36,021 bases of DNA from Dehalococcoidia bacterium (GTDB lineage: Bacteria > Chloroflexota > Dehalococcoidia > UBA6926): the NCBI GenBank assembly GCA_034420915.1, contig DAOUKW010000077.1, forward strand, positions 1-36,021, read 5' to 3'. Position 1 is the stretch's first letter, and each line of letters begins with the position of its first letter. The translations under genes were made by a program, and so were the position numbers. Positions 1 through 30,703 of this stretch are shown piece by piece. Under the pieces are notes generated by a model, which was given only the letters and a program-made list of their open reading frames with translations, was not told the origin of the DNA and searched no databases.

Positions 1-1383
1 GCGCTCATAGAACTCCCGCATCGCCGATGAGAACGCGACCAGTCCCATGACGTCGTACAGGTGGGTCAGGAAGTACTGGCCGAGGTGGTAACCGCAGGAT
101 TCCGCGTATTCACCGGGCTCCGCCAGGTCGGCAATGGTGGCAACGCCGTTGTTCACGCACCAGACCCTGCCCGCGTACTCATTGCCCTCGAACAGCGGCA
201 CCCCGCCTTCCCAGTCCTCGGAGCCGTCCCACGCCTGCCGGTAAGCCGTCACAAAGTTGGCGCCGCCCTCGAACAGCCAGTGCGGTCCGATCTCGAATGC
301 CAGGTGATAGTGGGCAACCTCGTGATAGATGAGGCCGGCGTGGGCTGTATCCGGCCAGTTACTGCCTGTGGACAGCACGATGGAGTCCACGAAATTCTTC
401 CCTCCGTATCCGTAGCCCTCGTAATTCTCCACGTTGACCTGGAGCATGATGATGTCCGTGACCGGGAACGGGCTGGCCATCACGCGCTCGGCGGCCAGCG
501 CCCCGTCCGCGGCGGCGGTGAGGATATCACCCGTTATCGCTTCGTGTCCGAAGGCCCAGAGGCCGACGGAGCCGCTCAGCGGCAGATCCACGGCGCGTGC
601 CTCGGTGAACCATTCTTCCAGCAGGTCGGTATAGATTGCGTCATCATTGGTGATCTTCGCCAGGACGATGATGAACGCCCGCTCCTCCAACGAGAGGCCG
701 TCGGCGAACCACTCCTGCACCTGCAGCCGTCTGAAGCTGTCCGGGTACTGCCACGACATGTCGCCGAGGGCGTAGAGGACATCGACATTGATCGTCCGCG
801 CCGGCTCCTCCACGCTGTGGGCGAACATCCGGCGCGCCAGGGCAGGGTCCCAATCGTAGAGATACTGGAGGCCGTAGACGGCGCTCGATTCCAGCGGGCC
901 GAGGCCGTCCCGGATCCACGGCGCGTTGGCAAGCTTCCGGCCAAGCTCGGCGTCCTTGAGCCAGACCTCGAGGATGGGCAGGACGGCAAGCGGGTAGGGC
1001 GGATTGTCGTACCACGGCAATAGCTGCGACAGGGCTGCGCGGGCCGCCTCCTCGGGCGTGGGCGCCGGAGTTTCCTTAGGATCAGAACCAGGCATTGCCG
1101 CCGGCTTGGGTGTCGGAGTTGGAGTTTCCTTTAGATCAGGATCAGGCATTGCCGTTGGCTTGGGTATCGGAGTGGCTGTGGCTTCTACAATTGTCTGAGC
1201 GGGAGAATACTGCGTGGGCGCGGGCGTTGGTATGTGAGACGGCGTCGAGGCAGGGGTCAGGTTTGGCGTCGCAGTCGGGATAATCTCAGTCGTTGGCGGC
1301 GGGGTGGGAGAGGGCGCGTCCCGAGCGCAGCCGCTCAGGATGACCAGCACAGCGAGGCTGAGCAGGATTGCCAGATGTCTCAT
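1..1383 (-). CDS. Secreted lipoprotein with MA-clan (gluzincin-like) zinc metallopeptidase domain; partial, C-terminus lies outside the window
   Basis: Absent from the supplied ORF track because it has no stop in the window. Reverse-strand ATG at 1383..1381 opens a frame that I translated without stops down to nt 1 (461 codons). N-terminus is MRHLAILLSLAVLVILSGC (lipobox LSGC), followed by a Pro/Thr-rich linker. HEVAH at 310..324 is followed by WLFEGGANF. Colinear similarity to the peptidase part of 9820..12804 (IDLPL.G.V.L.A.G; YHEMAH...EWLTEGAAEF; C.Y.LG..FLT.L......V..SA.RE.YE). The + strand ORF 61..1023 is its antisense shadow. Confidence 0.8.
   Translation of the reverse strand, partial: MRHLAILLSLAVLVILSGCARDAPSPTPPPTTEIIPTATPNLTPASTPSHIPTPAPTQYSPAQTIVEATATPIPKPTAMPDPDLKETPTPTPKPAAMPGSDPKETPAPTPEEAARAALSQLLPWYDNPPYPLAVLPILEVWLKDAELGRKLANAPWIRDGLGPLESSAVYGLQYLYDWDPALARRMFAHSVEEPARTINVDVLYALGDMSWQYPDSFRRLQVQEWFADGLSLEERAFIIVLAKITNDDAIYTDLLEEWFTEARAVDLPLSGSVGLWAFGHEAITGDILTAAADGALAAERVMASPFPVTDIIMLQVNVENYEGYGYGGKNFVDSIVLSTGSNWPDTAHAGLIYHEVAHYHLAFEIGPHWLFEGGANFVTAYRQAWDGSEDWEGGVPLFEGNEYAGRVWCVNNGVATIADLAEPGEYAESCGYHLGQYFLTHLYDVMGLVAFSSAMREFYER
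1067..1174. repeat. Tandem 2 x 54-nt in-frame duplication inside the Pro/Thr linker of the 1..1383 gene
   Basis: 1067..1120 and 1121..1174 align without gaps with only a few mismatches. On the minus strand they encode two 18-aa units (..TPIPKPTAMPDPDLKETP / TPTPKPAAMPGSDPKETP..). Confidence 0.8.
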
Positions 1384-1518
1384 CCGGGCATCCGCTTGCG
1401 GCAAGGCCGGCCACAGATGGTGACCTGTGCCAAGCATCTGCGGCACAGATAAAGGGAGAGAACTGACACGTTATTATCGCGCCGCGGTCATCGGCGTAAG
1501 CGCGGGCGGCTCACACTG

Positions 1519-1548
1519 GCAGCCCCCGTGTCGGGATGCGGGGGCTGC
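1519..1548. other. Perfect 10-bp stem, 10-nt loop GC-rich hairpin in a divergent intergenic region
   Basis: GCAGCCCCCG (1519..1528), loop TGTCGGGATG, CGGGGGCTGC (1539..1548). A weaker hairpin CTGTGCC/GGCACAG lies at 1425..1448. Confidence 0.6.
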
Positions 1549-1609
1549 GCAGGGCTAATGAGCGGGTGTGGAAACGGGTGTAAGTTGGGCGCTCAAAGGC
1601 GCAGCGGTT

Positions 1610-1623
1610 CTGAGACGTCTCAG
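1610..1623. promoter_or_regulatory. 14-bp perfect palindrome CTGAGACGTCTCAG (candidate operator)
   Basis: Exact inverted repeat read directly. It lies in the 448-bp gap between the divergently transcribed peptidase gene (start 1383) and sensor-regulator gene (start 1832 or 1886). Confidence 0.4.
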
Positions 1624-1758
1624 TCAAGGCGGTTGCCGCCGGATTTGACGTTGTTGGAGGCAAACGCTTTCGCAGTGCAAGGGCCAAAGAGGGCACCTCC
1701 CGACATTGCTACTGCGAACCAAGCTGCGTGGTACTATACCATTTAGATATAACCATTC

Positions 1759-1800
1759 TGTAACTATCTGACTGATTTTCTGTGACTTCTTGTAACTATC
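1759..1800 (+). promoter_or_regulatory. Direct repeats TGTAACTATC (x2) plus degenerate TGTGACTTCT in an AT-rich patch; candidate response-regulator binding site
   Basis: TGTAACTATC at 1759..1768 and 1791..1800, TGTGACTTCT at 1781..1790. The AT-rich stretch 1741..1820 stands out against the GC-rich surroundings. OmpR-family regulators bind direct repeats (established); the link to this site is inference. Confidence 0.35.
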
Positions 1801-1818
1801 AGGCAAATACAGCATAAT
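1790..1818 (+). promoter_or_regulatory. Sigma70-like promoter candidate for the sensor-regulator/LRR genes
   Basis: TTGTAA (1790..1795), 17-nt spacer, CATAAT (1813..1818). The -35 overlaps the second TGTAACTATC repeat. Confidence 0.4.
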
Positions 1819-1831
1819 TGCCCCCGCCAGC

Positions 1832-4246
1832 GTGGAATGCCGCGGACTGCACTGGTCGGACCAGGCAGCCAATCGGAGTGACGATTTGAGCCGACAGGAT
1901 GAGCGAGACCGAGAGAACGCGGCCCTCCGTGACCGCCTATCCCGCCTGAGCGAGGCCGGACTCCGCATCAACGAAGACCTGGACTTCGACACGGTGTTGC
2001 AAGAGGTGGTGGACGAGGCGCGATCTCTCACCTCCTCGCGCTACGGGGCGATCACCGTCTTTAATGAGGTTGGGCATATACCCGACTTCATCGTCTCCGG
2101 CTTGACCCGGGAGGAGCACCAGGGGTTTTGGGACATGCCGGAAGGGCCGGGATTCTTCGAATACCTCAGCAGCCTTGCCGAGCCCCTGCGGGTCCCGGAT
2201 ATCGAGGGCCACCTGAGAGAACTGAACATGCCTGAGTTCGTGCCCTCCGTACCGGTGACCTCCCTGCTGGTAGCCCCGATTCGCCACAGGGGCGTCGCGG
2301 TCGGCACCATCTATGTGGCTCACGGGGCGGATGGAAAGGAGTTCACGCAAGAGGACGAGGAGACCCTGGTTCTTTTTGCCTCGCAGGCGGCGATGGCCAT
2401 CGCCAACGCCCGCCGGCACCGGGAGGAGCAGCGGGCCAAGGCGGACCTGGAGACACTGATAGACACGTCTCCCGTTGGCGTGGTCGTCCTGGATGCGTTG
2501 ACGGGGGCCCCCAAGTCCTTCAATCGGGAAACCCGGAGGATCATCGACACCATACGGAATGCCGGGCAGTCACCCGAGCAGTTGTTGGAGGAGTTGACTT
2601 TCAGGCGGGCCGATGGACGGGAGGTCTCCCTGCGGGAGTTCCCGATGGCCGAGCTCCTCAGCACGGGAGAGACTGTACGGGCCGAGGAGATTGTCATGCG
2701 CGCCGCTGACGGGCGGAGCGTCACGGTACTACTCAACGCCACCCCCATCCTCTCCAAGGAAGATACGGTGGAGTCTGTCGTCGTCACGCTGCAGGACATG
2801 GCGGACGTGGAGGAACTGGAGCGGCTGCGGGCTGACTTCCTGGCGATGGTGAGCCACCAGCTGAGAACTCCTCTGACCTCTATCAAGGGCTCCGTCTCTA
2901 CGATTATGGATGCGGAGACGGACCTCGACCCTGCCGTGGTCCGCCAGTTCCTTCGGATCATCGAGGACCAGACCGATCACATGAACGCGCTGGTTGCAGA
3001 CCTGCTCGACGTGGCCCGTATCGAGACGGGAACGCTGCCGGTCAATCCGGAACCTACAGAGGTGGCCGTACTGGTGGATAGGGCACGCAGCGCCTTTGTC
3101 ACCGCAGGAGGCAGGAACAACCTCGCAATCGACGTTGACCCGAACCTGCCCCTGGTGATGGCAGACAGGCGGCGCATCGTCCAGGTGCTCAGCAATCTGC
3201 TGTTCAACGCGACCGATAACTCGTCAGAGTCATCCCTCATCAGGGTGACCGCTGTGTGGAATGGCGTTCACGTTGCGATGTCGGTGGCCGACGATGGGCG
3301 GGGCATCCCTGCGGAGAGGCTGCCGCACCTGTTTCGCAAGTTCTCTGCGACAAACTCCGAGGAGCATGGAGGGGACACGGGGCTTGGCCTCGCCATCTGT
3401 AAGGGCATAGTGGAAGCGCATGGGGGCCGCATCTGGGGCGAGAGCGACGGGCCGGGAATGGGGGCGCGTTTCACTTTCACCCTTCCATCTGTCGAAAACT
3501 CCGGAAGCGGCGCGGTCGACAGATCTTCCCCGACCTCAACGCAGCGTGAACTACGGGTGGAGGAGCGGGTGCGCGTTCTGGCCGTGGACGACGACCCCAA
3601 CGATCTCCGTTACATCCGCGACACACTTGCAAAGTCGGGCTACGAACCGATCGTCACCGGAGAGCCGGAGGAGGCGCTGCGCCTCGTGGAGAAGGGTAGG
3701 CCGGAGCTTGCGCTTCTGGATCTGATGCTCCCGGGAACGGACGGTATCGAGCTGATGAAGGAAATCCTCGATGTGGCCGATGTGCCGGTCATCTTCCTGT
3801 CTGCGTACGGACGGGAAGAACTGGTTGCCAGGGCATTCGACATGGGGGCCACGGATTATGTCGTAAAGCCGTTCTCCCCGACGGAACTCTCGGCGAGGAT
3901 CAGGGCAGCCCTGCGCAGACGGACGGCCGCAGAGCCGTCGGAGCCTTACGTGGTGGGCAACCTGACCATCGACTACACCGGGCGCAGGGTAACCCTTGCC
4001 GGAAATCCCGTCCATCTCACGCTGACTGAGTATCGCGTGCTGGGCGAACTCTCGGCCAATGCAGGGCAGGTGGTGACGTATGAGCGCCTTTTGGCTCGGG
4101 TCTGGGGTGCGAAGAACGCCGGGGACGTGAGGCCCATGCGCACCATCGTGAACAAAATCCGCCGCAAGCTGGGAGAGGACACCCAAAGGCCTGCTTATAT
4201 CTTCACCGAGCCCCGCGTGGGATACCGGATGCCGAGAGGGGAGTAG
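1832..4246 (+). CDS. Cytoplasmic hybrid sensor histidine kinase fused to a complete OmpR-family response regulator (GAF-PAS-HisKA-HATPase-REC-winged helix)
   Basis: GAF-like N-terminus (SSRYGAITVF...VAPIRHRGVAVGTIYV). PAS-like segment (LIDTSPVGVVVLD...). H-box FLAMVSHQLRTPLTSI. ATPase motifs (DDGRGIP, GDTGLGLAICKGIVEAHGGRIW). REC (VLAVDDDP...LALLDLMLPGTDG...VVKPF). OmpR-type wHTH (LTLTEYRVLGEL...RVGYRM). No hydrophobic TM segment. Start is uncertain: GTG 1832 per track, or TTG 1886 preceded by GGAG (1875..1878). Confidence 0.9.
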   Translation: MECRGLHWSDQAANRSDDLSRQDERDRENAALRDRLSRLSEAGLRINEDLDFDTVLQEVVDEARSLTSSRYGAITVFNEVGHIPDFIVSGLTREEHQGFWDMPEGPGFFEYLSSLAEPLRVPDIEGHLRELNMPEFVPSVPVTSLLVAPIRHRGVAVGTIYVAHGADGKEFTQEDEETLVLFASQAAMAIANARRHREEQRAKADLETLIDTSPVGVVVLDALTGAPKSFNRETRRIIDTIRNAGQSPEQLLEELTFRRADGREVSLREFPMAELLSTGETVRAEEIVMRAADGRSVTVLLNATPILSKEDTVESVVVTLQDMADVEELERLRADFLAMVSHQLRTPLTSIKGSVSTIMDAETDLDPAVVRQFLRIIEDQTDHMNALVADLLDVARIETGTLPVNPEPTEVAVLVDRARSAFVTAGGRNNLAIDVDPNLPLVMADRRRIVQVLSNLLFNATDNSSESSLIRVTAVWNGVHVAMSVADDGRGIPAERLPHLFRKFSATNSEEHGGDTGLGLAICKGIVEAHGGRIWGESDGPGMGARFTFTLPSVENSGSGAVDRSSPTSTQRELRVEERVRVLAVDDDPNDLRYIRDTLAKSGYEPIVTGEPEEALRLVEKGRPELALLDLMLPGTDGIELMKEILDVADVPVIFLSAYGREELVARAFDMGATDYVVKPFSPTELSARIRAALRRRTAAEPSEPYVVGNLTIDYTGRRVTLAGNPVHLTLTEYRVLGELSANAGQVVTYERLLARVWGAKNAGDVRPMRTIVNKIRRKLGEDTQRPAYIFTEPRVGYRMPRGE

Positions 4247-4300
4247 GCTGCGAACAATGAAACCTGTTGTGCCCGGCGGCGATGATCCGTCCAACAGATT

Positions 4301-6949
4301 ATGATGCGCAGGGGATTGCGACCGGTTGTCACGATTGCGCTTTTCTTCGCCATTACGGGCACAGCATGCGCCGACGCGGCACCGAGGCCAGGCTCCTTCT
4401 CCACGCCCACCAACACGCGGCAACCTGTTCCATCTCCCATCGTGTTGAATATCCAGTCCGATTCCAACACACCGGCGCCCAGCCCGACGCCGATTCCTTT
4501 GCCCGCGCCGAGTGCCCCAACCACGCCGGTTCCGACAGCAACACCTGTGTTGAACCTCGGGCCAACGCCGATTCCGATTGTTGTCCCGCCGTCGCACCTG
4601 GCCTCGGAACGGGTGGCGCTCGCCGTCATTCATAGGGCGATGGGCGGGAGTGTCTACAGTGACATACGGAATTGGTTGAGCGATGACCCTTTAGGGAAAT
4701 GGCACGGAGTGACAACCGACGAGAATGATAGGGTCATTGGGCTTGAGCTGGTGAATGCGGAGCTTACAGGGAGCATCCCGCCGGAAATTGGCAATCTTAC
4801 TCACCTGCAGACTCTCACAATTGCCGGCAACAGGGAGATGAGAGGGCCCATTCCTCCGGAGATTGGAAACCTGACCAACCTGAAGGAGCTTACCCTTAGC
4901 GCGACCGGCTTGTTGGGAGAAATCCCGCCGGAGATCGGCTCTCTAACCAACCTTGAACGTCTGACCATCTCCCATGACGGGTTGGGAGGTCCCATCCCGG
5001 AAGAGCTTGGCAATCTGACCAAGCTCACCTCATTGGATCTCTCCGGAAACCTGCTGAACGGAACGATTCCAGGTTCGCTTGGCAGGTTAACCAATCTCAC
5101 TGAGCTGAACCTTTATTCCAATATAGTGAACGGTCCTCTTCCCGAAGAGCTCTTCGAGCTGGAGAACCTGAAGACTCTAACCCTTTCAAGAAACGAGTTG
5201 GACATCCCCTTTCCCCGGGGTGTAATCAGTTTCCCCAACCTGGAAAACCTCCACCTGGGATACGCCGGGTTGACGGGACCAATCCCACTTGAATTGAGCG
5301 GCATGCAGAAGCTGAAGACATTGGACCTATTCGGGAACTCCCTTGTCGGGCCTATTCCGCCTGAAATCGGTGAGATGACGGCCCTTGAAACGCTGCAGCT
5401 TGGAGGCAATGAACTCACCGGACCTATACCAGAGGAACTGGGCAATCTTCGAAACCTGCAGGGCCTCTTCATCAGCGAGAATACGCTAACAGGGTCGATC
5501 CCGACATCACTTTGGGAACTGAACTTGCTGCAAACAATGAATCTCAAAGAGAACCGCTTGTCCGGCCAGATTCCGCATGAAATAGGCGGACTGTCGGAGC
5601 TGGTTACGATTGACATGTCCAACAACGCTTTGACAGGGTCCATTCCACCTGCATTGCTCGAGCTCCCTGCCATCCAGTCGGTAAATCTCTCCCGGAACAG
5701 CCTGTCCGGACGTATCCCTTCGGAGTTCCCTGACTCAAGCACTTTGCACACCCTGAATCTCTCTCACAACGATATTGGCGGGGTCATTCCGAATGAAATT
5801 CAAAGGTTCTTGAGCCTTCGATTCCTGGACTTATCAGGAAATAAGCTCACCGGTGGCATCCCCGTGGAATTCAGGGATATGCAGTCCTTGGAAGAAGTTG
5901 ACCTGTCCATGAACGACTTGTCAGGCCCACTCCCCCCCGAACTCGGAGAGATGAGCCTCATAAACGTGCTCGATCTTTCGGGCAATCGTCTTACTGGAAA
6001 CGTGCCGCCTGAGTGGGCCGGTATGAGGAAATTGAGATCGCTGAATCTCCGGGATAACGATCTCAGGGGCAAGGCGCCGACTGCGCTTCCCGATAGTGAA
6101 CTGACGCTTGATCTGTCCGGGAACAGGTTCAGCGGTAAGATTCCCGCCGAGCTTGGCGCGGCGAAACGCCTGAAGTCCCTTGACCTTTCCCGGAACGAGC
6201 TGACCGGGTGGATTCCTGAAGAACTGGGGGTATTGACCAACCTGGAGTCTCTCGATCTGTCCATGAACGGCCTGACCGGTCCCATCATTCCCAGGCTTGC
6301 AAATCTGTATCGTCTAAAGCGGCTCGACCTTGCCGACAATGGATTGTCCGGCGAGATTCCAACTACTATTGACGCCCTCCGGAACCTCAAGCACCTGGAC
6401 CTTTCTGATAACAGTCTCACCGGAACGATTCCTCCGCCGCTGGGTCATCTCAACGCCCTCGTGCACCTTGACCTCTCCGGCAATCGTCTCGAAGGCCCCA
6501 TCCCGACAGAACTTGGTAACATTTCACGTCTGACCTTCCTCTCCCTGTCAAACAACGATCTAACGGGTTCGATCCCTCCGGAACTGGAGCGCCTTTGGCA
6601 ACTGGAAACGCTGGCCCTTTCGGATAACCGATTGAGCGGCGACATCCCTGCCGGGATACGTACAGATCGATTACGCCACGTAGATCTCTCAAGAAACCAG
6701 TTGACCGGCCGGATCCCACCCTGGCTTGGGGGCCATTTCAATCTGGAGTCATTGCTGCTTTCGGAAAACCGGTTGAGGGGGACTATCCCGGCCCGATACG
6801 GTGAAGTTCCGAAACTGGCAGAGTTGCGAGTAGAGGGCAACCATCTGGAGGGTTGTGTTCCGGAGACCCTGGCGACTATTGATGTGTTGGTTGTCAGTCC
6901 GCAGGAGGGCGACACGGAAACATTGCCGTTCTGCCGGAAGGATCCATGA
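4301..6949 (+). CDS. Secreted (lipobox-like signal) giant leucine-rich repeat protein, about 30 plant-specific-type 24-aa LRRs
   Basis: MMRRGLRPVVTIALFFAITGTAC signal, Pro/Thr linker, N-cap (..NWLSDDPLGKWHGVTTDENDRVIGLEL). About 30 units of L..L..L.L..N.LtG.IP.ElGnL, counted by hand. C-terminal cap NHLEGCVP...LPFC. Confidence 0.9.
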   Translation: MMRRGLRPVVTIALFFAITGTACADAAPRPGSFSTPTNTRQPVPSPIVLNIQSDSNTPAPSPTPIPLPAPSAPTTPVPTATPVLNLGPTPIPIVVPPSHLASERVALAVIHRAMGGSVYSDIRNWLSDDPLGKWHGVTTDENDRVIGLELVNAELTGSIPPEIGNLTHLQTLTIAGNREMRGPIPPEIGNLTNLKELTLSATGLLGEIPPEIGSLTNLERLTISHDGLGGPIPEELGNLTKLTSLDLSGNLLNGTIPGSLGRLTNLTELNLYSNIVNGPLPEELFELENLKTLTLSRNELDIPFPRGVISFPNLENLHLGYAGLTGPIPLELSGMQKLKTLDLFGNSLVGPIPPEIGEMTALETLQLGGNELTGPIPEELGNLRNLQGLFISENTLTGSIPTSLWELNLLQTMNLKENRLSGQIPHEIGGLSELVTIDMSNNALTGSIPPALLELPAIQSVNLSRNSLSGRIPSEFPDSSTLHTLNLSHNDIGGVIPNEIQRFLSLRFLDLSGNKLTGGIPVEFRDMQSLEEVDLSMNDLSGPLPPELGEMSLINVLDLSGNRLTGNVPPEWAGMRKLRSLNLRDNDLRGKAPTALPDSELTLDLSGNRFSGKIPAELGAAKRLKSLDLSRNELTGWIPEELGVLTNLESLDLSMNGLTGPIIPRLANLYRLKRLDLADNGLSGEIPTTIDALRNLKHLDLSDNSLTGTIPPPLGHLNALVHLDLSGNRLEGPIPTELGNISRLTFLSLSNNDLTGSIPPELERLWQLETLALSDNRLSGDIPAGIRTDRLRHVDLSRNQLTGRIPPWLGGHFNLESLLLSENRLRGTIPARYGEVPKLAELRVEGNHLEGCVPETLATIDVLVVSPQEGDTETLPFCRKDP

Positions 6950-9381
6950 GCATGGGCTTCTTTACAGATAAACGACGTCTTCAGCAGCTGGGAACCGTTG
7001 CCCTTTTCACACTCAGTGCCTTTGTGCTGACGGTTGCCTGCGACCGTATCGAGCAAGAGACAGCCATTGTCACTCCCGGATCGACAGCCGGGCCAATTCC
7101 GGGCTTGGCGCTGCCCACCTCAACGCCAATTCCAACGCCCAGGGTCTTACCCACTCCAACTCCAACCAGTCTTCCCACACCCACTCCCTTGCCGACCGCC
7201 ACGCCGGTGCCGTCAATCGAAACGGACCGCGCCGCTCTTGTTGCCTTATTCGAGGCGACGGGGGGTGAAAACTGGCTGCACAAAGAGAACTGGCTGAGTG
7301 ACGAGCCAATGGGAACCTGGTCCGGTGTTACAACCCACGGGGACGGGCGGGTTGGCAGACTTTATCTGCAGGAGTACGGATTGTCCGGCGAGCTCCCACC
7401 CGAGATTGGAAACCTCACCAGGCTCAGAGGAATGTGGCTTGGCTCCAACCAACTGACTGGGCGGATTCCAGGCAGACTCGGCAATCTCACAGAGTTGGAG
7501 ACACTGGACCTTGAAGGCAACGAGTTGACCGGTCCAATCCCGCAGAACCTTGCCAATCTAACTGGGCTGATCCACCTCAGGCTTGCCGGGAACCGACTGG
7601 TAGGGCGCATTCCCCCTGATCTTGCCTTCCTGTCCGAGATCGAGCTGTTGGATCTCGCCGACAACGAACTGAGGGGGCCAATTCCGCTTGCGCTTGGCAA
7701 CATGACCAAGATGGAAGACCTGCTGCTTGGAGGCAATACACTGAGCGGCCCAATCCCACCCAATCTGGTCAACCTGAGCGACTTACGAGTGCTGGATCTG
7801 TCCGACAATGAGTTCACTGGCTCAATACCGACCGAGCTAGTCCATCTGACCAACCTTGAGACGCTGGACGTGTCCCAAAACATGTTGACGGGGTCGATAC
7901 CGATTGAGCTTACAAATATGCTCGCTCTGCACGTCCTCAATCTCTCGCAGAACAGACTGTCCGGCCCGATCCCTCCCGAATTCCAAAACCTCCTCAACCT
8001 CAGAAAACTGCACCTGGCTACCAATCAGTTGACAGGCTCCGTGCCTACGCAACTGGCAAACCTCTCCAACCTGAACGTTCTGGATCTCTCAAACAACTTG
8101 CTGACGGGCGAGTTCCCTTCGGAAATCGAGAAACTCAGAGACCTGCATGTCCTTAATCTCGACGGCAACAGCATCGCCGGGGTTCCAGTATCCGATCGAC
8201 CGGCGCTCATCGCGTTCTATCACGCAACGGGCGGGGATAACTGGCACAACAAGAGCAACTGGCTCAGCGATACTCCGATTGGGACATGGCATGGCGTGAA
8301 GAGTGACGGGGGGCGGCGTGTTATTGAACTACGGCTGGGCAACAACAACCTTGTGGGCCACATCCCCCCTGAGATCGGCAACCTGGCGCAGATGCAGTTT
8401 CTCAGTTTGACAGCCAATCAACTGAGCGGTGTCCTTCCTCCGGAATTCGGCAATCTGTCCAGCCTTGAGACCGCGTTTCTATTTCGCAACCAGCTGACAA
8501 CTCCAATCCCGAGTGAAGTGGCAAATCTCACGAGCCTGGAATTGCTGGACCTGTCACAGAATCCGTTGGATGACCTATTCCCCGTCGCATTGACGAGGCT
8601 GACAGGACTGGAAAAACTGACGCTTTCGAACTGCGGGCTGCGCGGTCGCATTCCGGCTGTCATCGGCAACATGGAGAACCTAAGGGAGTTGGAGCTTTCA
8701 CACAACAGCATTACGAGCCCTATCCCGGAGTCAATTACAGATCTCGATAGATTGTCGAATCTTGATCTGAGGGATAATGCACTTAGCGGTTCATTCCCGC
8801 GAGAAGTGGTTGAAATTGGGAGTCTAAGGTCGCTTGACCTTAGAAATAACGAGCTGACCGGCCCCATTCCGTCCTCACTGGCTCAATTGGAAGACATGTC
8901 CTATCTGTCTCTCGGCGGGAACGAGTTAACCGGACCGATCCCGCCCGAAATTGCCCGGATGAGCAGCCTTGGATGGCTCCTCCTTTCGGGTAATGAATTC
9001 TCTGGCTCCATTCCGTCCTGGATAGGAAGCCTGGAGGAGTTGTTGTATTTGGACCTCTCCCACAATCGACTAACCGGCCCTATCCCGACCGAGCTCGGCA
9101 ATCTCGAGAAGCTGCTCTATATGTCCCTGCAGGGCAATGAATTAAGCGGACCAATACCGGCCGAGTTCAGGAATCTGAAGGGCCTGCAGAGCTTTATCAT
9201 TTCTGACAACGAGATTACCGGCTCGATCCCCCCATGGATTGGCGAGATGCCAGGTATGTGGCGTATATGGGTTGATGGGAACAGGCTTGAGGGCTGCATT
9301 CCGAAACCACTCATGTACCTGAGCGAATTGGCTGTGAATCCGCAGCGAGGGCAGCAGACTGAATTGGAGTTCTGCGGGTAG
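6946..9381 (+). CDS. Secreted lipoprotein-like LRR protein with two N-cap+LRR modules (about 12 + 14 repeats)
   Basis: ATGA start/stop overlap with the upstream gene (6946..6949). Signal ..FTLSAFVLTVAC, then Pro/Thr linker. Cap 1 is DRAALVALFEATGGENWLHKENWLSDEPMGTWSGVTT (from 7225). Cap 2 is DRPALIAFYHATGGDNWHNKSNWLSDTPIGTWHGVKS (8191..8337). C-terminal cap NRLEGCIP...LEFCG. Confidence 0.9.
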   Translation: MSMGFFTDKRRLQQLGTVALFTLSAFVLTVACDRIEQETAIVTPGSTAGPIPGLALPTSTPIPTPRVLPTPTPTSLPTPTPLPTATPVPSIETDRAALVALFEATGGENWLHKENWLSDEPMGTWSGVTTHGDGRVGRLYLQEYGLSGELPPEIGNLTRLRGMWLGSNQLTGRIPGRLGNLTELETLDLEGNELTGPIPQNLANLTGLIHLRLAGNRLVGRIPPDLAFLSEIELLDLADNELRGPIPLALGNMTKMEDLLLGGNTLSGPIPPNLVNLSDLRVLDLSDNEFTGSIPTELVHLTNLETLDVSQNMLTGSIPIELTNMLALHVLNLSQNRLSGPIPPEFQNLLNLRKLHLATNQLTGSVPTQLANLSNLNVLDLSNNLLTGEFPSEIEKLRDLHVLNLDGNSIAGVPVSDRPALIAFYHATGGDNWHNKSNWLSDTPIGTWHGVKSDGGRRVIELRLGNNNLVGHIPPEIGNLAQMQFLSLTANQLSGVLPPEFGNLSSLETAFLFRNQLTTPIPSEVANLTSLELLDLSQNPLDDLFPVALTRLTGLEKLTLSNCGLRGRIPAVIGNMENLRELELSHNSITSPIPESITDLDRLSNLDLRDNALSGSFPREVVEIGSLRSLDLRNNELTGPIPSSLAQLEDMSYLSLGGNELTGPIPPEIARMSSLGWLLLSGNEFSGSIPSWIGSLEELLYLDLSHNRLTGPIPTELGNLEKLLYMSLQGNELSGPIPAEFRNLKGLQSFIISDNEITGSIPPWIGEMPGMWRIWVDGNRLEGCIPKPLMYLSELAVNPQRGQQTELEFCG

Positions 9382-9733: not shown

Positions 9734-9821
9734 CTAGAGACTCTTCATTGAACTGGTAAGTGCCGAATCACACTCGCAAGGCGCCAATGTGTTTGCTCCA
9801 AACGAGAGCATTGCTGCAACT
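9734..9821 (-). repeat. Copy 1 of an 88-nt conserved non-coding element; abuts and overlaps the stop codon of the 9820..12804 gene
   Basis: Ungapped alignment with 13385..13472 gives 69/88 identical positions by hand count, including the identical 26-mer ctggtaagtgccgaatcacactc-context, gtttgctc and ctgcaact. Confidence 0.75.
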
Positions 9822-12804
9822 AGGAGTCGCAGAAAGGCAGGCCGAGGCGAACGAGATCGTTGTCAGCTTGGTTATTATCGCGCTCGCCCGTGATGGCGAG
9901 CAACTTGGCCGGTATGCATCCCCTTAGCCGGTTGTGGCCAAGCCACAGCACTTCCAGCTTGGCGAGATTGCCCAGTTCGGAGGGTATCATCCCGCTCAAC
10001 TGGTTTCCGAAGAGCGACAGGTGCGTTAGGTTGGCGAGGCCGCCCAGTTCTGGCGGGATGGGCCCGCTCAACCGGTTCGTGGAGAGTAACAGATGCGTCA
10101 GGTTGGCAAGGCTGCCCAGTTCCGTCGGTATCGTCCCGCTCAGCTTGTTACCACTAAGGTTCAGGTCTTCCAAATGAATGAGATCGCCCAGCCTGGTCGG
10201 TATTTCGCTAGTCAACTGATTGTGTGAAAGTCTCAGAGATTGCAGCTTGGCGAGATTGCCCAATTCCGCCGGTATCTCTCCACTCAACTGGTTAGACCAA
10301 AGCCCCAGCGCTTGCAATTTGGCAAGACTGCCAAGCTCCGCCGGTATCTCCCCTGTCAACTCGTTGTTACCGAGAGACAGGAATTGCAGCTTGGCGAGAT
10401 TGCCCAGTTCCGTCGGTATCGTCCCGCTCAACTGATTATCGCGGAGCGACAGATGCCTCAGGTCAGCGAGGCTCCCCAGTTCTGTCGGTATCGGTCCGCT
10501 CAACTGATTCCCCCCCAGGTCTAGTGCAACGACAGAACCGTCACAGTCGGTGAGTACCCCGTGCCATTGGTCCAGGGGACTGTCGCTCAACCAGTTCTGA
10601 CTGTTCTTCCACGACGCGCCGTTGGTGGCATGATGGAGCGCGACTAATGCGTTCCTCACTTCACTTGAGGGCGCGTCCTTGGGTGGTGGGGTATAGCCCT
10701 GTATCGGCCTGCCATGAAGACAGTTATAGAGAAAGCGATAGTCATCCCGTTTTGATTGCGGAGTGTTCTTCAAGAACGTCTGGTAAATCTTGTCCTCCGT
10801 CGCCTCTGTGCTCCTGCTGGTCTCGTACAATTCCCGCAGAGCGGACAATACCACCTCGTGCCCCAAGATGTGGTGCAATCCGGTCAGGAAGTGAAGGCCC
10901 AAGCGATATGGGCAGGTATTAACTCGCCCATCCTCCACTACACTCAATCCACTCGTGATCCACTCCTGCACATTCATCGTGCTCACGGAAAAGCAATCGT
11001 CGGATATCCGTACCTTTGAAGAGATGTACTCCTCATAGAAAGAGATTTCCAGATCAGCCTCTTTCAGAACGGCGTAGCTCATCAAGAATTCCGCCGCGCC
11101 CTCGGTAAGCCATTCCGGAGTACGTGCTCCTCCTCCACCAAAATAGAAGTGTGCCATCTCGTGATACAGTACCCTCTTGCGGGAGGCTGATTTGATTGCC
11201 GCGCGTGATCCGTTATTCACTCCAGCCGCATCACTTTCGGCTATCTGGAATTCGCTTTCCAGCAAAAGGATGACATCGGACTTCGGCCACGGAACTTCCA
11301 TGAATTCCTCCAAGTGCTCGGTGGCGAAAACCATAGCGTCCAGCACAGTATGCAGCTCGTCCTCCGACCGCCCGACCGCGAAGAGGTCCACTTCGCCCGC
11401 CAGGGGAAGATCGATCGTCTCCGACCACACCACGCCGCCCCGCACCATCTCATCGAAGAACTCCTGCGAAACTATGGCGCTTCCTATCGTGACGATCAGC
11501 GCAGCCTCCTCGGCGGTCAGCCCGTCCTCCACCCACGGCTCTCGCATGAGCCGCTGCGCCCGGCTGGGATGGTTGGAGCGAATCTTCCACAGACTGGACA
11601 TGGTGTCTTGCATGAGCTGCCCGGTCTGATCCGGAATGGTCGTCACCAGCACCGCCTCGTCAAGGCGGGTACTGGCTAGGCGGGAGACCAGACTGAGCAC
11701 ATCCAACTCATCGTGCGTGACCCCGTCGGAAAGCCACAGTGAGCCCGCTACTCGCTGAGACATCGACCGGTCTATTTGGGCGAGCTCCCCAATGCGGAAC
11801 AGTGCCCGCCGTTCGGCGTTGGTGGCGCCGTCCGCGATCCACGGCAGGTTATCCGTATTGAACTCCGAAACCCTTGCAGTCACTACAGCGGAGCAGTTGT
11901 TGGTCGTGTCAGACTCACCCGATACCGGCTCAGCGCATGCGCCATAGTAGTACACGCCCGGAGTGGGCGGCGCATGCGTAAGGATTGATTCGGCGCCACT
12001 ATCAGATGGATTCAGTCTGTGAATCTGGTCCGTCCCCACTTCAGTATCTGTGGACGTGATAGTCGCGTCAGTAGAACGGTAGTAGCGCAGCGTGGTGGGA
12101 CCAGATACCCATGCACCCTGGTTCCGCACGGAGAACCTCAGTACCAGGGTCTGACCTAGCATTGGGTTGCTATCACTCACTGCTGGCTCGACCACCGTCA
12201 GATCGGGTGGAGGTGGAAGCACGGTCACGGCGACGGAGGAGGAGCAGTTGTTCGTCCTATTGGACTCGTGGGGTACGGGCGCCACGCAGGCACCATAGTA
12301 GTATGTGCCCGGCGAAGGCGGCGTAACCGTGAGTATCGACTCAGTGCTGCTTGCGGATGCCTCCAGCCTTGCCACCAGGATCGAGTCCACCTCGTCATCT
12401 TCGGTCGAGATGGTTGAGTCGGTGGAGCGGTAGTAACGTAGCGTGGTGGGGCTCGATGCCCCGGGCCCCTCGTTCCGCACAGTGGCGCTCAGCGTGAAGG
12501 ACTGGCCTCCCATAAAGTCTCTGCCGCTTACTGTTAGCAGATCTACCACCAGGTCGGGCGGTGACGGTGTCGGCGTGGGGGTCGGTGATGGCGTTGCTGT
12601 GGGGGTTGGTGATGGTATAGGAGTGTGCGCCGGGGTCGAAGTGAGTGCAGGAGTTGCCGTCGGCGCGGGTGAAGGGGTGGCGGTGGGCATCGGCGTTGAT
12701 GTTGCCTCGTCGGAGCATCCGGCGACGAGCAGGATCAGTAGTGCCGTGCCAACAACAGCCAGACTCAGCTTGGGTCTTGACATTCCGAATGCCTCACTGG
12801 ACAT
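9820..12804 (-). CDS. Lipoprotein: 2 x CARDB-like domains + MA-clan HExxH metallopeptidase + N-capped plant-type LRR module (9 repeats)
   Basis: Signal MSRPKLSLAVVGTALLILLVAGC. The more likely start is ATG 12783, preceded by GAGG; the track start is 12804. Pro/Thr linker follows. Two paralogous about 110-aa units (PDL.V......GQ...L...VRN.G...S..TTLRYYRSTD..I...D.EV......YYYGAC..PV..ES..TNNCS). HEMAH at 11149..11163, then EWLTEGAAEF. Cap VRNALVALHHATNGASWKNSQNWLSDSPLDQWHGVLTD. 9 LRRs. C-terminal cap NRLRGCIP...LPFCDS. Confidence 0.9.
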   Translation of the reverse strand: MSSEAFGMSRPKLSLAVVGTALLILLVAGCSDEATSTPMPTATPSPAPTATPALTSTPAHTPIPSPTPTATPSPTPTPTPSPPDLVVDLLTVSGRDFMGGQSFTLSATVRNEGPGASSPTTLRYYRSTDSTISTEDDEVDSILVARLEASASSTESILTVTPPSPGTYYYGACVAPVPHESNRTNNCSSSVAVTVLPPPPDLTVVEPAVSDSNPMLGQTLVLRFSVRNQGAWVSGPTTLRYYRSTDATITSTDTEVGTDQIHRLNPSDSGAESILTHAPPTPGVYYYGACAEPVSGESDTTNNCSAVVTARVSEFNTDNLPWIADGATNAERRALFRIGELAQIDRSMSQRVAGSLWLSDGVTHDELDVLSLVSRLASTRLDEAVLVTTIPDQTGQLMQDTMSSLWKIRSNHPSRAQRLMREPWVEDGLTAEEAALIVTIGSAIVSQEFFDEMVRGGVVWSETIDLPLAGEVDLFAVGRSEDELHTVLDAMVFATEHLEEFMEVPWPKSDVILLLESEFQIAESDAAGVNNGSRAAIKSASRKRVLYHEMAHFYFGGGGARTPEWLTEGAAEFLMSYAVLKEADLEISFYEEYISSKVRISDDCFSVSTMNVQEWITSGLSVVEDGRVNTCPYRLGLHFLTGLHHILGHEVVLSALRELYETSRSTEATEDKIYQTFLKNTPQSKRDDYRFLYNCLHGRPIQGYTPPPKDAPSSEVRNALVALHHATNGASWKNSQNWLSDSPLDQWHGVLTDCDGSVVALDLGGNQLSGPIPTELGSLADLRHLSLRDNQLSGTIPTELGNLAKLQFLSLGNNELTGEIPAELGSLAKLQALGLWSNQLSGEIPAELGNLAKLQSLRLSHNQLTSEIPTRLGDLIHLEDLNLSGNKLSGTIPTELGSLANLTHLLLSTNRLSGPIPPELGGLANLTHLSLFGNQLSGMIPSELGNLAKLEVLWLGHNRLRGCIPAKLLAITGERDNNQADNDLVRLGLPFCDS

Positions 12805-13576: not shown

Positions 13577-14854
13577 ATGCTTCAGGCACCTCGCCAAACC
13601 AGGGGCCTGTACTCGATGAAGGAAGTGTTCGGTGCAGTGCGGGCGCGGGTTTTTCAGATGCTCTGGCTCGACCCGGACGAGGTATCGTACGCAGCCAATA
13701 TTGCGGTGTGGGTTCGCTGGTTCCTCTGGGTCGGCGCCATAACCACTCTTGCCCACGAATCCGAGTTCACTTATTTCCAATCCCTACGCCAGACCATTTC
13801 GGTCATGCTCATGCACGTCTCAGTGGCCACCCTCAACGCCCATGTGCATTACCGTCTGCTTACCAAGCGTCGAGTGACGTGGCGTCACATGATTGTCCTC
13901 AGCGCGTTGGATCTAGCACTGATCACGGTCACCGTCGTCGATCTGGGGTACGACTCAATCTGGTTCGTCGGCTACTATCCCGCGCTTGCCATCTTCGCTG
14001 CCGTCTTCACTTCCGCTCTACTGAATCTCACCTGGACCACGGTCGCCTCCTCCATTTATGTCGGCGTGATTCTAACCGACGGGTCGGGTCTCACCTTCGA
14101 TGTGATCGATGAGAAGGCGCTCTATATAAGAGTGATTGCGATGTTCGGGGTAGTTCTTGTGATCAACTTCATCACTCGGTTCCAACGGCGCAGGGCGAGG
14201 GAGGCGATCGAAAGGGAAGGGGCGCTGCAACGAGAGCGGATCGAGCTTTCCCAGGCGATTCACGATACGGCCGCGCAGACGGCGTACATGATCGGCCTGG
14301 GCATAGACGCAGCCAAGCAGGTTGCCGGAAACTCGAACGAGGAGCTCACCTCCAGACTGGAAGCGACATCGCAGCTTTGCAAGACTGCCGTCTGGCAGCT
14401 GAGGCGCCCAATCGACATGGGTCGCATCTTCGATGGCCGGGAACTGGGCTGGACCCTGGACTCGCACGTTGCCACGTTCAGATCCATCACATCGATAGAG
14501 GCGGAGCTGAGGCAGAACGGTGCAGAGCCGCCACTTTCGGTTGAGGCAAAGAGTCGGCTGTTTACCATAGCGCATAACGCACTTGCCAACGCCTTCCGTC
14601 ATGCCGGGGCGAGCCGCGTGTTGGTCGACCTCGACTTCAGACGGGATGAACTCAGACTGTCGGTGTCGGACGACGGGGCGGGGCTTCCGGATGACTACGA
14701 GGAACGGGGCCACGGCTTCGCAAACATGCGGGCGGACGCTGAGCGTCTGGGCGGACGCCTTGTCGTTGAGGCCAGAGGCTTGACCGGGGGCGCGAGAGTG
14801 ACTTGTTTGGTGCCATTGGAACGTGGTGGAAAGGGGAGATACGTTGTCAACTGA
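13577..14854 (+). CDS. Polytopic membrane sensor histidine kinase, HisKA_3 (NarX/DesK-like) class
   Basis: AGGAGAG 4 nt upstream of the ATG. N-terminal half has multiple hydrophobic helices and no large loop. H-box LSQAIHDTAAQTAY. ATPase motifs NALANAFRHA, DDGAGLP, GHGFANM. Confidence 0.85.
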   Translation: MLQAPRQTRGLYSMKEVFGAVRARVFQMLWLDPDEVSYAANIAVWVRWFLWVGAITTLAHESEFTYFQSLRQTISVMLMHVSVATLNAHVHYRLLTKRRVTWRHMIVLSALDLALITVTVVDLGYDSIWFVGYYPALAIFAAVFTSALLNLTWTTVASSIYVGVILTDGSGLTFDVIDEKALYIRVIAMFGVVLVINFITRFQRRRAREAIEREGALQRERIELSQAIHDTAAQTAYMIGLGIDAAKQVAGNSNEELTSRLEATSQLCKTAVWQLRRPIDMGRIFDGRELGWTLDSHVATFRSITSIEAELRQNGAEPPLSVEAKSRLFTIAHNALANAFRHAGASRVLVDLDFRRDELRLSVSDDGAGLPDDYEERGHGFANMRADAERLGGRLVVEARGLTGGARVTCLVPLERGGKGRYVVN

Positions 14855-15497
14855 GACTCGTCGAATAAGGGTGCTGCTTGCGGACGACCATTCGATCGTG
14901 CGGGAAGGTCTTCAGTCGATGTTGGAGCGGTCCGAGGAGTTCGAGGTGGTGGGGGAGGCCAGGGACGGAGTGGAGGCAGTGGAAGCGGCGTCCAAACTCT
15001 CACCCGACGTAATCATCATGGATGTCATGATGCCCAAGAAGGACGGAGTGGAGGCATGCCGAGAGATCATGGAATCTCTCCCCGATACAAGGGTGATCAT
15101 GCTGACCGCCTCGACCGAGGCGGACGCTGTGATAGAGGCGATGGCCGCCGGAGCGGCGAGCTATCTTCAGAAAGTGTCCGGCGTGGACAATCTCCTGAGT
15201 ACGCTGAAGGGCGCGGCTGATGATGAGATGCGCATGCCGACCGAAGTGGTAAGGAGGGTCTTTGACAGGATACGGAGCGAGACACAATCGAAGGGAGAGT
15301 TCGACCTGACCCCGAGAGAGAAGGAGATACTTGTATCTTTCTGCCGAGGTATGTCATACGTCACCATCGCAGAGGCAAGGGGAGTCAAGCCGGTTACCAT
15401 CCGAAACGCCATCTACACCATCCAGGTGAAGATGGGTGTTTCCTCGAAGCAGGAGATTGTAGTCTTGGCAGTCCGGAACGGCCTCCTTGATGACTGA
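14823..15497 (+). CDS. NarL/LuxR-family response regulator
   Basis: REC (RVLLADDHSIVREGL...DVIIMDVMMPKKDG...) plus LuxR HTH (LTPREKEILVSFCRGMSYVTIAEARGVKPVTIRNAIYTIQVKMG). The likely real start is in-frame TTG 14844, preceded by GGGGAG. Either start overlaps the kinase stop (14852..14854). Confidence 0.9.
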   Translation: MVERGDTLSTETRRIRVLLADDHSIVREGLQSMLERSEEFEVVGEARDGVEAVEAASKLSPDVIIMDVMMPKKDGVEACREIMESLPDTRVIMLTASTEADAVIEAMAAGAASYLQKVSGVDNLLSTLKGAADDEMRMPTEVVRRVFDRIRSETQSKGEFDLTPREKEILVSFCRGMSYVTIAEARGVKPVTIRNAIYTIQVKMGVSSKQEIVVLAVRNGLLDD

Positions 15498-22672: not shown

Positions 22673-23332
22673 CCACTCGGAACCGCCGTCCCACACCTCG
22701 CGTTTCCAGACCGGCGCCAATGCCTTGACCTTCTCCACGGCCTCCCGGCACGCGTCAAAGGCCGCGCGGCGGTGCGGCGAGGCTACGGCAACGACCAGCG
22801 AGGTCTCTCCAATCTCAAGCCGCCCTGTCCGATGCCATAACGCGATGCTGCCGATGTCGAAGTCTTCGAGCGTCTCGCGTCCAATCTTCCGCAGCACGCT
22901 CTCGGCCATCTCCGGATATGCCTCGTATTCAAGGAACAACACATGCCGCCCAAGGTTGTTGTCCCGCACGATGCCCTCAAACGTGAGAACCGCCCCATCC
23001 GACGAAGCCTTGAGCGACTCTGCGATTTTAAGAGCGTCAAGCGGATCAGGCGTCACGCCAACCTGCACGGCCTCCGCCTCAGAGACCGCTCCTCCACTCA
23101 CGGGTGGGATCAGCGCAACTTCATCGCCTGCGGAGATGGTGGTTGATTGGTCGACGTATTCCTGGTTGACGGCGACAACAACACCCTCGCAACGGTTTGC
23201 CAACGCCGGATGCTGCCGCTGCGCCTCACCCAGCAGGTGCGAGACCGGCTCGCCTTCGGAAATCTCAACGCTGATTTCCGAAGCGCCCACCGCTTCTCGT
23301 AGTGCCGCAAACAGTCTTACTCGAACGTCCAT
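22655..23332 (-). CDS. Molybdopterin synthase MoaD-MoaE fusion protein
   Basis: MDVRVRLFAALREAVG....EVALIPPVSGG (MoaD, di-Gly at codons 80-81 = 23095..23090) runs directly into a MoaE-like part (DGAVLTFEGIVRD...LEYEAYPEMAE...IALWHRTGRLEIGETSLVVAVASPHRRAAF). I prefer ATG 23332 over the track's TTG 23461 because the extra 43 aa have no family features. Confidence 0.85.
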   Translation of the reverse strand: MDVRVRLFAALREAVGASEISVEISEGEPVSHLLGEAQRQHPALANRCEGVVVAVNQEYVDQSTTISAGDEVALIPPVSGGAVSEAEAVQVGVTPDPLDALKIAESLKASSDGAVLTFEGIVRDNNLGRHVLFLEYEAYPEMAESVLRKIGRETLEDFDIGSIALWHRTGRLEIGETSLVVAVASPHRRAAFDACREAVEKVKALAPVWKREVWDGGSEWLRGAG

Positions 23333-23338
23333 GCGGCC

Positions 23339-23344
23339 ATTATA
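23339..23344 (-). promoter_or_regulatory. Consensus TATAAT -10 box 6 nt upstream of the moaDE ATG (possible leaderless transcript)
   Basis: Minus strand reads cgccTATAATggccgcATGgac. No SD is possible in the 6-nt gap, and there is no good -35. Confidence 0.35.
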
Positions 23345-23371
23345 GGCGTCCGTTCTCGCCGTTTGTGATGC

Positions 23372-23401
23372 TTGACACAAATTCGGGCAGACAGATAGAC
23401 T
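23372..23401 (+). promoter_or_regulatory. Candidate promoter of the cytochrome oxidase operon
   Basis: TTGACA (23372..23377), 18-nt spacer, TAGACT (23396..23401), 65 nt upstream of ATG 23466. Confidence 0.4.
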
Positions 23402-23465
23402 CGCAATGTCGCAGTTGCGACCCAACGCTAACTGTTGAGGTATTGCTCTGAACAGGCTCAACCGA

Positions 23466-24593: not shown

Positions 24594-24616
24594 CGGGCGG
24601 CCGGCTGAAGGAGTAG

Positions 24617-26479: not shown

Positions 26480-26517
26480 CAACGAGACTGATTAGGAAAC
26501 GCTAAAGGACATCGCAC

Positions 26518-27120
<603 letters not shown>

Positions 27121-27157
27121 GACGGATTAAGGCACACGCAAAGCGAGGAACGGCAAC

Positions 27158-27469: not shown

Positions 27470-27518
27470 GAAACGGCACGAGAGACCATTAGAGGAACCG
27501 GAAAAAGGCAGGACAGGC

Positions 27519-30689: not shown

Positions 30690-30703
30690 GCGAGCCACTC
30701 CTC

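Follow-up and report, generated by a model that had tools for sequence, protein, structure and literature searches.

To our knowledge, studies of two-component systems that join all parts, DNA-binding output included, in one polypeptide have been confined to the membrane-bound, AraC-output hybrid two-component systems (HTCS) of Bacteroides. HTCS such as BT4663 and BT1754 combine a sensor, a HisKA-HATPase kinase core, a receiver, and a DNA-binding output in a single chain, occur as several paralogs per genome, sit in the inner membrane with a large periplasmic glycan sensor, and adjoin the polysaccharide utilization loci that they target. Tethering the regulator to its kinase is thought to allow relaxed partner specificity while paralogs stay insulated from one another, and it means that DNA binding by the unstimulated dimer must be restrained (PMC11253607). 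Here, we describe a gene built on the same logic in a 36,021-nucleotide stretch of the genome of a Dehalococcoidia bacterium (Chloroflexota, UBA6926; assembly GCA_034420915.1, contig DAOUKW010000077.1, positions 1 to 36,021 of the forward strand), which we refer to as the window. The gene encodes a soluble sensor kinase fused to an OmpR-type response regulator, and the reading that we favor, and consider reasonably probable, is that its product is a cytoplasmic one-polypeptide two-component system autoregulated via its own promoter, with the copy in the window predicted to be kinase deficient and phosphatase competent.

The comparison with HTCS had been drawn in the initial annotation of this DNA, which was made from the letters alone, and it is apt in that both groups join sensor, kinase, receiver, and DNA-binding output in one polypeptide and both occur as several paralogs per genome. 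They differ in the sensor, which is a soluble, cytoplasmic GAF-PAS module here; in the output, which is an OmpR-type winged helix; in the absence of a conserved neighbor at the fused loci; and in their hosts, as the fused family is found mainly in Chloroflexota metagenome-assembled genomes (MAGs). Judged by its sequence, the family is HTCS-like in logic yet is not HTCS. By analogy, both of the consequences of tethering described for HTCS should apply to the fused soluble family.

In the list of open reading frames (ORFs) of the window, the fused regulator spans 1832..4246 on the forward strand and has 804 aa counted from a GTG codon. This extent stands as initially annotated, but the start likely lies further in, at TTG 1886, giving a protein of 786 aa. 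We favor TTG 1886 because a GGAG at 1875-1878 sits 7 nt upstream of it and because it agrees with both the public gene call (P0001, 786 aa) and the consensus N-terminus of the relatives; GTG 1832 lies 13 nt past a -10-like hexamer and has no Shine-Dalgarno sequence. Residue numbers below follow the 804-aa numbering (from GTG 1832) unless stated otherwise. The single-ORF order of GAF, PAS, HisKA, HATPase, receiver, and OmpR-type winged helix that had been read from the letters was borne out by Pfam, with which all six domains score above the gathering threshold:

1886..4246, forward strand: fused sensor kinase/response regulator gene, with six Pfam domains, the upstream GGAG, and the P0001 gene call
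1982..2401, forward strand: GAF domain, residues 51-190, by Pfam; DevS/DosT-like in sequence, without the heme-ligand His
2444..2800, forward strand: PAS domain, residues 205-323 (PF00989, 27.6 bits against a cutoff of 22.6)
2828..3031, forward strand: HisKA (dimerization and histidine phosphotransfer, DHp) domain, residues 333-400 (PF00512, 71.8 bits)
3164..3490, forward strand: HATPase_c domain with N, G1, F, and G2 boxes, residues 445-553 (PF02518, 93.4 bits)
3491..3574, forward strand: putative flexible tether between ATPase and receiver, residues 554-581, with low identity, constrained length, and AlphaFold2 (AF2) disorder
3575..3904, forward strand: Response_reg receiver, residues 582-691 (PF00072, 87.2 bits)
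4001..4231, forward strand: Trans_reg_C, an OmpR/PhoB-type winged helix, residues 724-800 (PF00486, 65.1 bits, profile positions 1-77 of 77)

The motifs quoted in the initial annotation (SHQLRTPL, LLDLMLPG, and RVGYRM) are all present in the ORF, and the recognition helix of the winged-helix domain lies around RPMRTIVNKIRRKL. The claimed lack of a transmembrane segment also held, the highest Kyte-Doolittle mean over 19 residues being 1.27, and Pfam and hydropathy together revealed neither a signal peptide nor a periplasmic domain. Pfam gave no HTH_18/AraC match in the protein, the output being Trans_reg_C. In the segment that links ATPase and receiver, family members share a mean identity of only 27%, while the length stays within 22 to 32 residues (median 28), and the AF2 predicted local distance difference test (pLDDT) score is 23 to 28, i.e., disordered; a segment of variable sequence and constrained length is what a flexible tether would look like. 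Upstream of it, the AF2 model suggests a PAS-like beta-sheet followed by a long DHp helix.

Each half of the protein is, by sequence, an ordinary member of its superfamily, and it is their pairing in one soluble chain that is uncharacterized. NCBIfam returned only matches below the equivalog cutoffs, with the front half resembling PnpS, PhoR, and WalK and the back half resembling MtrA, PhoB, RpaB, and KdpE. Among solved structures, the best match for the receiver is MtrA (2gwr, 1e-37), followed by KdpE (2e-36) and RegX3 (9e-31), all three of which align across the receiver and DNA-binding domain, while HK853 matches at ∼5e-37. The closest matches to the two halves are thus the MtrB-MtrA, PhoR-PhoB, KdpD-KdpE, and SenX3-RegX3 systems, but those consist of two proteins with a usually membrane-bound kinase, whereas here the regulator is fused to a soluble kinase. 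As both parts lie in one ORF, the gene does not encode a stand-alone response regulator with a separate kinase.

The fused architecture is kept across a large family. All 120 best matches in a 90%-clustered database are 772 to 834 aa long, share 73 to 80% identity, and contain the GAF, HisKA, HATPase_c, receiver, and Trans_reg_C domains. A scan of species-representative genomes yielded 68 relatives (L002 to L069) at 39 to 80% identity, mostly full length; full-length copies are encoded in 61 loci of these genomes, and several relatives lie on chromosome-level assemblies. The architecture is preserved in more than 180 full-length relatives. Of 156 sequences obtained from a 50%-clustered library, 128 retain the kinase, receiver, and winged helix, so that at least 128 clusters have this core, with 87 retaining the entire GAF-PAS-kinase-receiver-winged-helix order. 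A frameshift or stop that splits kinase from regulator in the real genome, the risk named with the initial annotation, is excluded by the 120 best matches and the 61 full-length loci, and the database search proposed there did recover the same architecture, though not conserved neighbors.

It is therefore scarcely credible that the gene encodes an ordinary hybrid kinase feeding a histidine phosphotransfer (HPt) phosphorelay, with a vestigial DNA-binding domain, or that the fusion is an assembly or frameshift artifact. Kinase-receiver hybrids are common, as 22.8% of histidine kinase (HK) genes encode a receiver (PMC3018481), and 15 family representatives show GAF-PAS-HK only, ending just past the ATPase or carrying tails without domains. 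However, the winged helix is a complete Pfam match, with 60% mean identity across the family and the RVGYRM motif kept, Pfam detects no HPt domain in the protein or its neighbors, and a single ORF is preserved on hundreds of independent contigs, including chromosome-level assemblies. The truncated representatives look like fragments or decayed copies but may also be fission products. Full-length best matches and genome loci together largely refute both the phosphorelay and the artifact explanation. ArcB, TorS, RcsC, and LuxQ likewise place a kinase before a receiver in one chain, and NCBIfam gave partial matches to TorS, LuxQ, and RcsC, but these hybrids have no DNA-binding output and pass phosphate through an HPt domain, whereas the fused chain ends in a complete winged helix and contains no HPt domain.

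Fusions of this kind are known to specialists, so the architecture alone is no surprise. An earlier survey (Cock & Whitworth 2007), as summarized in PMC3018481, found that the joining of transmitter and receiver in a single protein depends on whether a transmembrane sensor or a DNA-binding output is present. A full-text literature search returned no description of the fused soluble family, and the database names of its members are generic ("response regulator," "ATP-binding protein," "PAS domain S-box protein"). A search of a plasmid collection found no fused homolog, no record covering at least 80% of the query, and only unfused kinase and regulator pairs of this kind; the matches from Rhizobium and Cupriavidus plasmids that seemed fused were separate kdpD and kdpE ORFs.

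Longer relatives prepend other sensors to the shared core, including two GAF domains, fn3, three to six PAS domains, MEDS, or a transmembrane segment with HAMP. Examples are P0244 (1,233 aa; transmembrane segment and HAMP), P0235 (1,156 aa; MEDS), and P0128 (907 aa; fn3), in each case N-terminal to the core. Only 1 of the 156 relatives (P0244, with HAMP) looks membrane bound, and a few family members may thus be membrane anchored in the manner of HTCS. Two unlinked copies of the fused gene occur in eight genomes, and in five further loci a second full-length copy, placed in tandem with the first or diverging from it, lies no more than about 5 kb away, with products that are 43 to 54% identical to the window protein:

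Locus L007, 11772-14177: paralog of the fused gene
Locus L011, 13319-15739: paralog of the fused gene
Locus L018, 13807-16434: paralog of the fused gene
Locus L056, 4193-6703: paralog of the fused gene
Locus L057, 10494-13016: paralog of the fused gene

The initial proposal of a cytoplasmic GAF/PAS sensor is plausible. The best solved matches to the GAF domain are DevS GAF-A (4ynr and 2w3d) and DosT (2vzw), with E values of 4e-19 to 1.5e-16, the DevS GAF-A match at 4e-19 spanning residues 31-180 of the 786-aa protein. DevS (DosS) and DosT of Mycobacterium tuberculosis are also soluble kinases, and their N-terminal GAF belongs to the same sequence subfamily. We nevertheless consider it very unlikely that the fused protein is a heme-based gas or redox sensor of the DevS/DosT type. 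The match over the whole GAF speaks for such a role, as do the retained position of the distal Tyr171 (Y in 68 and F in 28 of 97) and the aerobic respiratory chain encoded in the window. The column of the proximal heme ligand His149, on the other hand, is not conserved (L 39, R 16, S 12, H 7) and holds Val in the pairwise or Pro in the family alignment of the window copy, Glu87 is replaced by T and His89 by L, F, or P, and the kinase core is HisKA where DevS has HisKA_3. On the residue evidence, a DevS-type heme sensor was rejected. DevS and DosT further differ in having two GAF domains, where the fused protein has one GAF and a PAS, and in acting through a separate NarL-type regulator rather than an attached OmpR-type one.

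The catalytic machinery is well conserved across the family. Kinase residues N455, N459, D487xGxG491, F501, and G517xG519 are found in at least 63 of 67 relatives, and the phospho-acceptor His342 (2855-2857) is found in 66. The acidic pocket of the receiver (D586/D587) is conserved, as is the switch Tyr within DYVVKPF, with the phospho-acceptor Asp630 (3719-3721) and Ser657 each present in 64 of 67 relatives and Lys679 in all 67.

The window copy departs from its family at the position next to the phospho-acceptor (H+1). HisKA kinases require an acidic residue (E or D) there for autokinase activity, which the family as a whole provides: 118 of 119 close relatives have Glu, as do 97 of 102 representatives. 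In the window copy, this residue is Gln343, encoded by CAG at 2858-2860 (a one-base change from GAG to CAG), the sole such case among the 119 close relatives, so the H-box SHQLRTPL singled out initially is present but atypical. The same CAG occurs in a public scaffold (L001) that is not identical to the window (99.85% identity, 19 differences in 14.2 kb), which makes an assembly error at codon 343 unlikely. The copy has 11 deviations at columns that are at least 95% conserved, mostly conservative, within the range of 1 to 17 seen in relatives, and by this measure it is otherwise not decaying.

Substitutions at this Glu have been characterized in other kinases. E372Q in CrdS abolishes kinase activity but keeps phosphatase activity, as do Glu-to-Ala mutations in HK853, HK4262, and HK1190, and E140Q gives a kinase-minus phenotype in NtrB (PMC3510030). 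With Gln343 replacing the catalytic Glu beside the phospho-His, the window copy is predicted, by analogy, to be in a kinase-off, phosphatase-on state. Thr346 (2867-2869), at the H+4 position of the phosphatase motif, is present in this copy, while across the family 39 of 67 sequences have T and 17 have A at H+4, and T or S is seen in 60 of 102 representatives, so that many paralogs lack this feature. The claim that the protein phosphorylates itself is thus doubtful for the window copy, as the equivalent Glu-to-Gln changes are kinase negative in CrdS and NtrB (PMC3510030). We note that ∼5% of family representatives have a nonacidic H+1 residue (G, Q, N, or K) and that ∼40%, mostly with Ala, lack T, N, or S at the phosphatase-defining H+4; it thus seems that kinase-off and phosphatase-off forms are a recurrent natural feature of the tethered proteins.

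The best-supported function of the fused regulator is control of its own promoter. The upstream region contains the following elements:

1748..1796, forward strand: candidate operator of four direct repeats, in a register conserved in orthologous promoters
1748-1753, forward strand: repeat R1, TATAAC (degenerate)
1759-1764, forward strand: repeat R2, TGTAAC
1781-1786, forward strand: repeat R3, TGTGAC
1791-1796, forward strand: repeat R4, TGTAAC
1790..1825, forward strand: promoter-like element consisting of a -35-like TTGTAA, a 17-nt spacer, a -10-like CATAAT, and a conserved block
1790-1795, forward strand: -35-like TTGTAA, overlapping R4
1813-1818, forward strand: -10-like CATAAT, after the 17-nt spacer
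1817-1825, forward strand: conserved block ATTGCCCCC, after the -10-like hexamer

The repeats, described as TGT(A/G)AC in a 10- to 11-bp phase, have start-to-start spacings of 11, 22, and 10 bp, and the promoter-like element is the sole sigma-70-like match in 1300-4400. Among the orthologous upstream regions, conservation peaks in the block GGCATAATTGCCCC, and the repeat register is kept in 20 nonidentical orthologous promoters from different species while the intervening sequence varies. The repeat words are enriched and strand specific, with TGTAAC found in 17 of 67 upstream regions and GTTACA in 1 of 67. Activators of the PhoB/OmpR type work through half-sites placed in tandem at intervals of one helical turn and reaching into the -35 element, and the pho boxes bound by PhoB are likewise direct repeats in a ∼10- to 11-bp phase over the -35. 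The repeats described here are in helical phase and overlap the -35-like hexamer, matching this layout, and the fused regulator therefore probably controls its own promoter.

We built a position weight matrix (PWM) on R3-R4, with training loci picked by a -10 anchor and a loose R4-like pattern. When each locus was left out in turn, the promoter site outscored every other 19-mer of its ∼18-kb locus in 12 of 20 cases and came first in 4 more if a shifted register or a tied duplicate is disregarded; two loci outside the training set, L024 and L059, scored 23.5 and 23.7 bits at the matching position. Matches below ∼16 bits are noise (131, versus 68 in shuffled sequence). Across the 36-kb window, the PWM has a single match, the promoter of the gene itself. 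Distant clades with different recognition helices have upstream direct repeats of their own, e.g., CGTGCAnTTACnGTGCA and TGTTGATTTCTGTTGATTT. A scan for generic repeats matching at 6 of 7 positions with 10- to 11-bp spacing was judged uninformative by itself, given its chance expectation.

A search for a wider regulon in the other loci found few strong PWM matches away from the gene, and the only one of these with a convincing gene after it precedes a truncated family member. Copies of the operator/promoter, exact or nearly so, occur away from an intact gene at L013 16887 (an exact copy of the promoter site with no identified gene downstream), L017 483 (followed by a 129-aa ORF of unknown function), and L063 13382 (followed by a truncated N-terminal family fragment). 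These stray sites look like remnants of duplication or disruption.

It is unlikely, in our estimate, that the repeats serve another transcription factor, or serve only as promoter elements, with the fused regulator acting on unlinked targets without autoregulation. R4 (TTGTAA/TTGTGA) resembles a -35 hexamer, and strong extra sites off the gene (L008 10712 and L062 1645) have no clear downstream gene, both of which would fit that explanation. Against it, four similar half-sites in a 10- to 11-bp phase are the binding signature of the OmpR/PhoB family, the repeat sequence shifts between clades together with the recognition helix, and a truncated member of this gene family follows one of the extra sites (L063).

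The mechanism that we propose is a fully tethered pathway. The fused protein would dimerize through its DHp helices, a cytoplasmic cue read by GAF-PAS would set the balance of kinase and phosphatase activity, and His342 would hand its phosphate to Asp630 on the tethered receiver, either of the same chain or of the dimer partner. Phosphorylated receivers would then pair, placing two winged helices on the tandem direct repeats, and the bound helices would activate the gene's own promoter; in this genome, the two downstream leucine-rich repeat (LRR) genes may share that transcript. Given the kinase deficiency predicted from Gln343, the receiver of the window copy would be phosphorylated in trans, by a paralog or acetyl phosphate, or the protein would be held off.

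Several points weigh against autoregulation by a tethered pathway. Phosphotransfer and DNA binding are assigned by homology for the whole family, and the effect of Gln343 is extrapolated from other HisKA kinases. The AF2 monomer is of low confidence (pLDDT 66, predicted TM-score 0.37) and uninformative on domain docking. The choice of PWM training loci is partly circular, which the leave-one-out design and the untrained loci mitigate; the clade-wise covariation of helix and repeat is anecdotal; and generic 6-of-7 repeats at 10 to 11 bp are expected by chance at an estimated ∼0.6 per 200 bp, and thus in roughly one of every two 200-bp segments. The repeats could also be bound by another regulator, and R4 could simply be the -35 hexamer.

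The initial annotation had assigned targets next to the gene, proposing direct control by the fused regulator of the LRR genes downstream, a divergent peptidase, or both, via binding in 1384-1831 and 4247-4300. The neighbors concerned are as follows:

4301-6949, forward strand: LRR protein gene with LRR Pfam matches, directly downstream (LRR1)
6946-9381, forward strand: second LRR protein gene with LRR Pfam matches (LRR2)
1-1383, reverse strand: divergent upstream gene running off the left edge, encoding a lipoprotein-like product with a signal peptide and Cys and a Pro/Thr-rich linker

We find this assignment doubtful. The genes are adjacent, with 54 bp between the stop of the fused gene and LRR1 and a 4-bp overlap between LRR1 and LRR2, no terminator-like site was found in 1300-4400, and the operator at 1748-1796 lies within the intergenic region shared with the lipoprotein gene. 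In ∼7 of 80 loci, among them loci of Caldilineaceae, Latescibacterota, and Gemmatimonadota MAGs, LRR genes are likewise present no more than 8 kb from the fused gene. In those other loci, however, they are 2 to 3 kb off on the opposite strand rather than adjacent, and as sponge-associated MAGs show a general enrichment of LRR proteins (PMC8163846), such proximity may be chance. All-against-all clustering of the ORFs of 61 loci found no neighbor family in more than 7 loci, and the ten closest orthologs have unrelated, differing neighbors. Apart from the gene's own promoter, there is no operator-like site in 4247-4300 or elsewhere in the 36-kb window. For the lipoprotein gene, the operator lies ∼365 to 410 bp from the start codon, and the product, called a peptidase, has an HEVAH motif (HEVAHYH) but no Pfam match, which makes it a putative peptidase. 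Direct regulation of these neighbors is thus not borne out, whereas the 54-bp gap and the lack of a terminator-like site suggest that the two downstream LRR genes may be cotranscribed with the fused gene, in this genome only and outside any conserved unit.

A homolog of the upstream lipoprotein, 70% identical, occurs in L036, and a looser look-alike (HEYFH) lies upstream of the fused gene in L006. A third LRR gene at 9820-12804 on the reverse strand adds CARDB domains and a weak Peptidase_M1 match, so that three large secreted LRR proteins, eukaryote-like repeat proteins with Pro/Thr-rich N-terminal linkers, are clustered in the window.

Relatives with more than 50% identity come from MAGs labeled Dehalococcoidia/SAR202, Caldilineaceae, Gemmatimonadota (including "Ca. 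Palauibacter irciniicola"), Latescibacterota, Paracoccaceae, and Acidimicrobiia, and in a neighbor-joining tree the Caldilineaceae copies fall at no fewer than three places inside Dehalococcoidia clades. Many bin names (RHO, COS, SB06xx, and irciniicola) look like those of sponge-microbiome MAGs, a reading of the names rather than of metadata that leans on published work (PMC8163846, PMC10469786). Some taxon labels may be unreliable. L049 (OZ242180.1, labeled Latescibacterota) and L050 (JAPPJY010000016.1, labeled Gemmatimonadota) have near-identical fused genes, identical upstream regions, and shared LRR synteny, reflecting either a very recent transfer or inconsistent taxonomy, and claims of horizontal transfer call for caution on this account.

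We tentatively raise a broader possibility, namely that the family is a large, uncharacterized class of soluble, self-contained, autoregulated two-component regulators, which duplication and horizontal transfer would have carried into unrelated bacteria associated with sponges (Dehalococcoidia/SAR202, Caldilineaceae, Gemmatimonadota/Latescibacterota, and Paracoccaceae). Thanks to tethering, several paralogs with coevolving operators might coexist without cross talk, and kinase-off variants (Q, K, N, or G at H+1, e.g., the window copy) and phosphatase-off variants (Ala at H+4) might be fixed-state or trans-activated members of the network. If the cross-phylum distribution among sponge symbionts is true, the fused protein becomes a candidate regulator of a symbiotic lifestyle, encoded here beside eukaryote-like LRR proteins; if none of this holds, a correctly identified regulator with a generic annotation remains. 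The size of the family, its predicted operator, its catalytic variants, and its apparent spread across phyla make the system worthwhile, and a soluble protein, a predicted operator beside the gene, and natural catalytic-site variants make it tractable. With its OmpR-type output, the family is also a natural test of how a symmetric kinase dimer can drive two tethered winged helices onto head-to-tail repeats yet keep them off DNA without a signal.

An unfused two-component pair lies 9 kb downstream of the fused gene (13577-14854 and 14823-15497, forward strand), with a HisKA_3 kinase and a NarL/GerE-type regulator, so fused and split designs are both present in the same genome. The region from 22655 to 35970 encodes housekeeping functions of aerobic respiration, comprising a MoaD/MoaE fusion, a caa3-type cytochrome c oxidase (COX2 with a cytochrome c domain, COX1, and COX3), CtaG, and cytochrome c biogenesis genes, together with a CtaA-CtaB fusion (COX15 and UbiA) in one 634-aa ORF.

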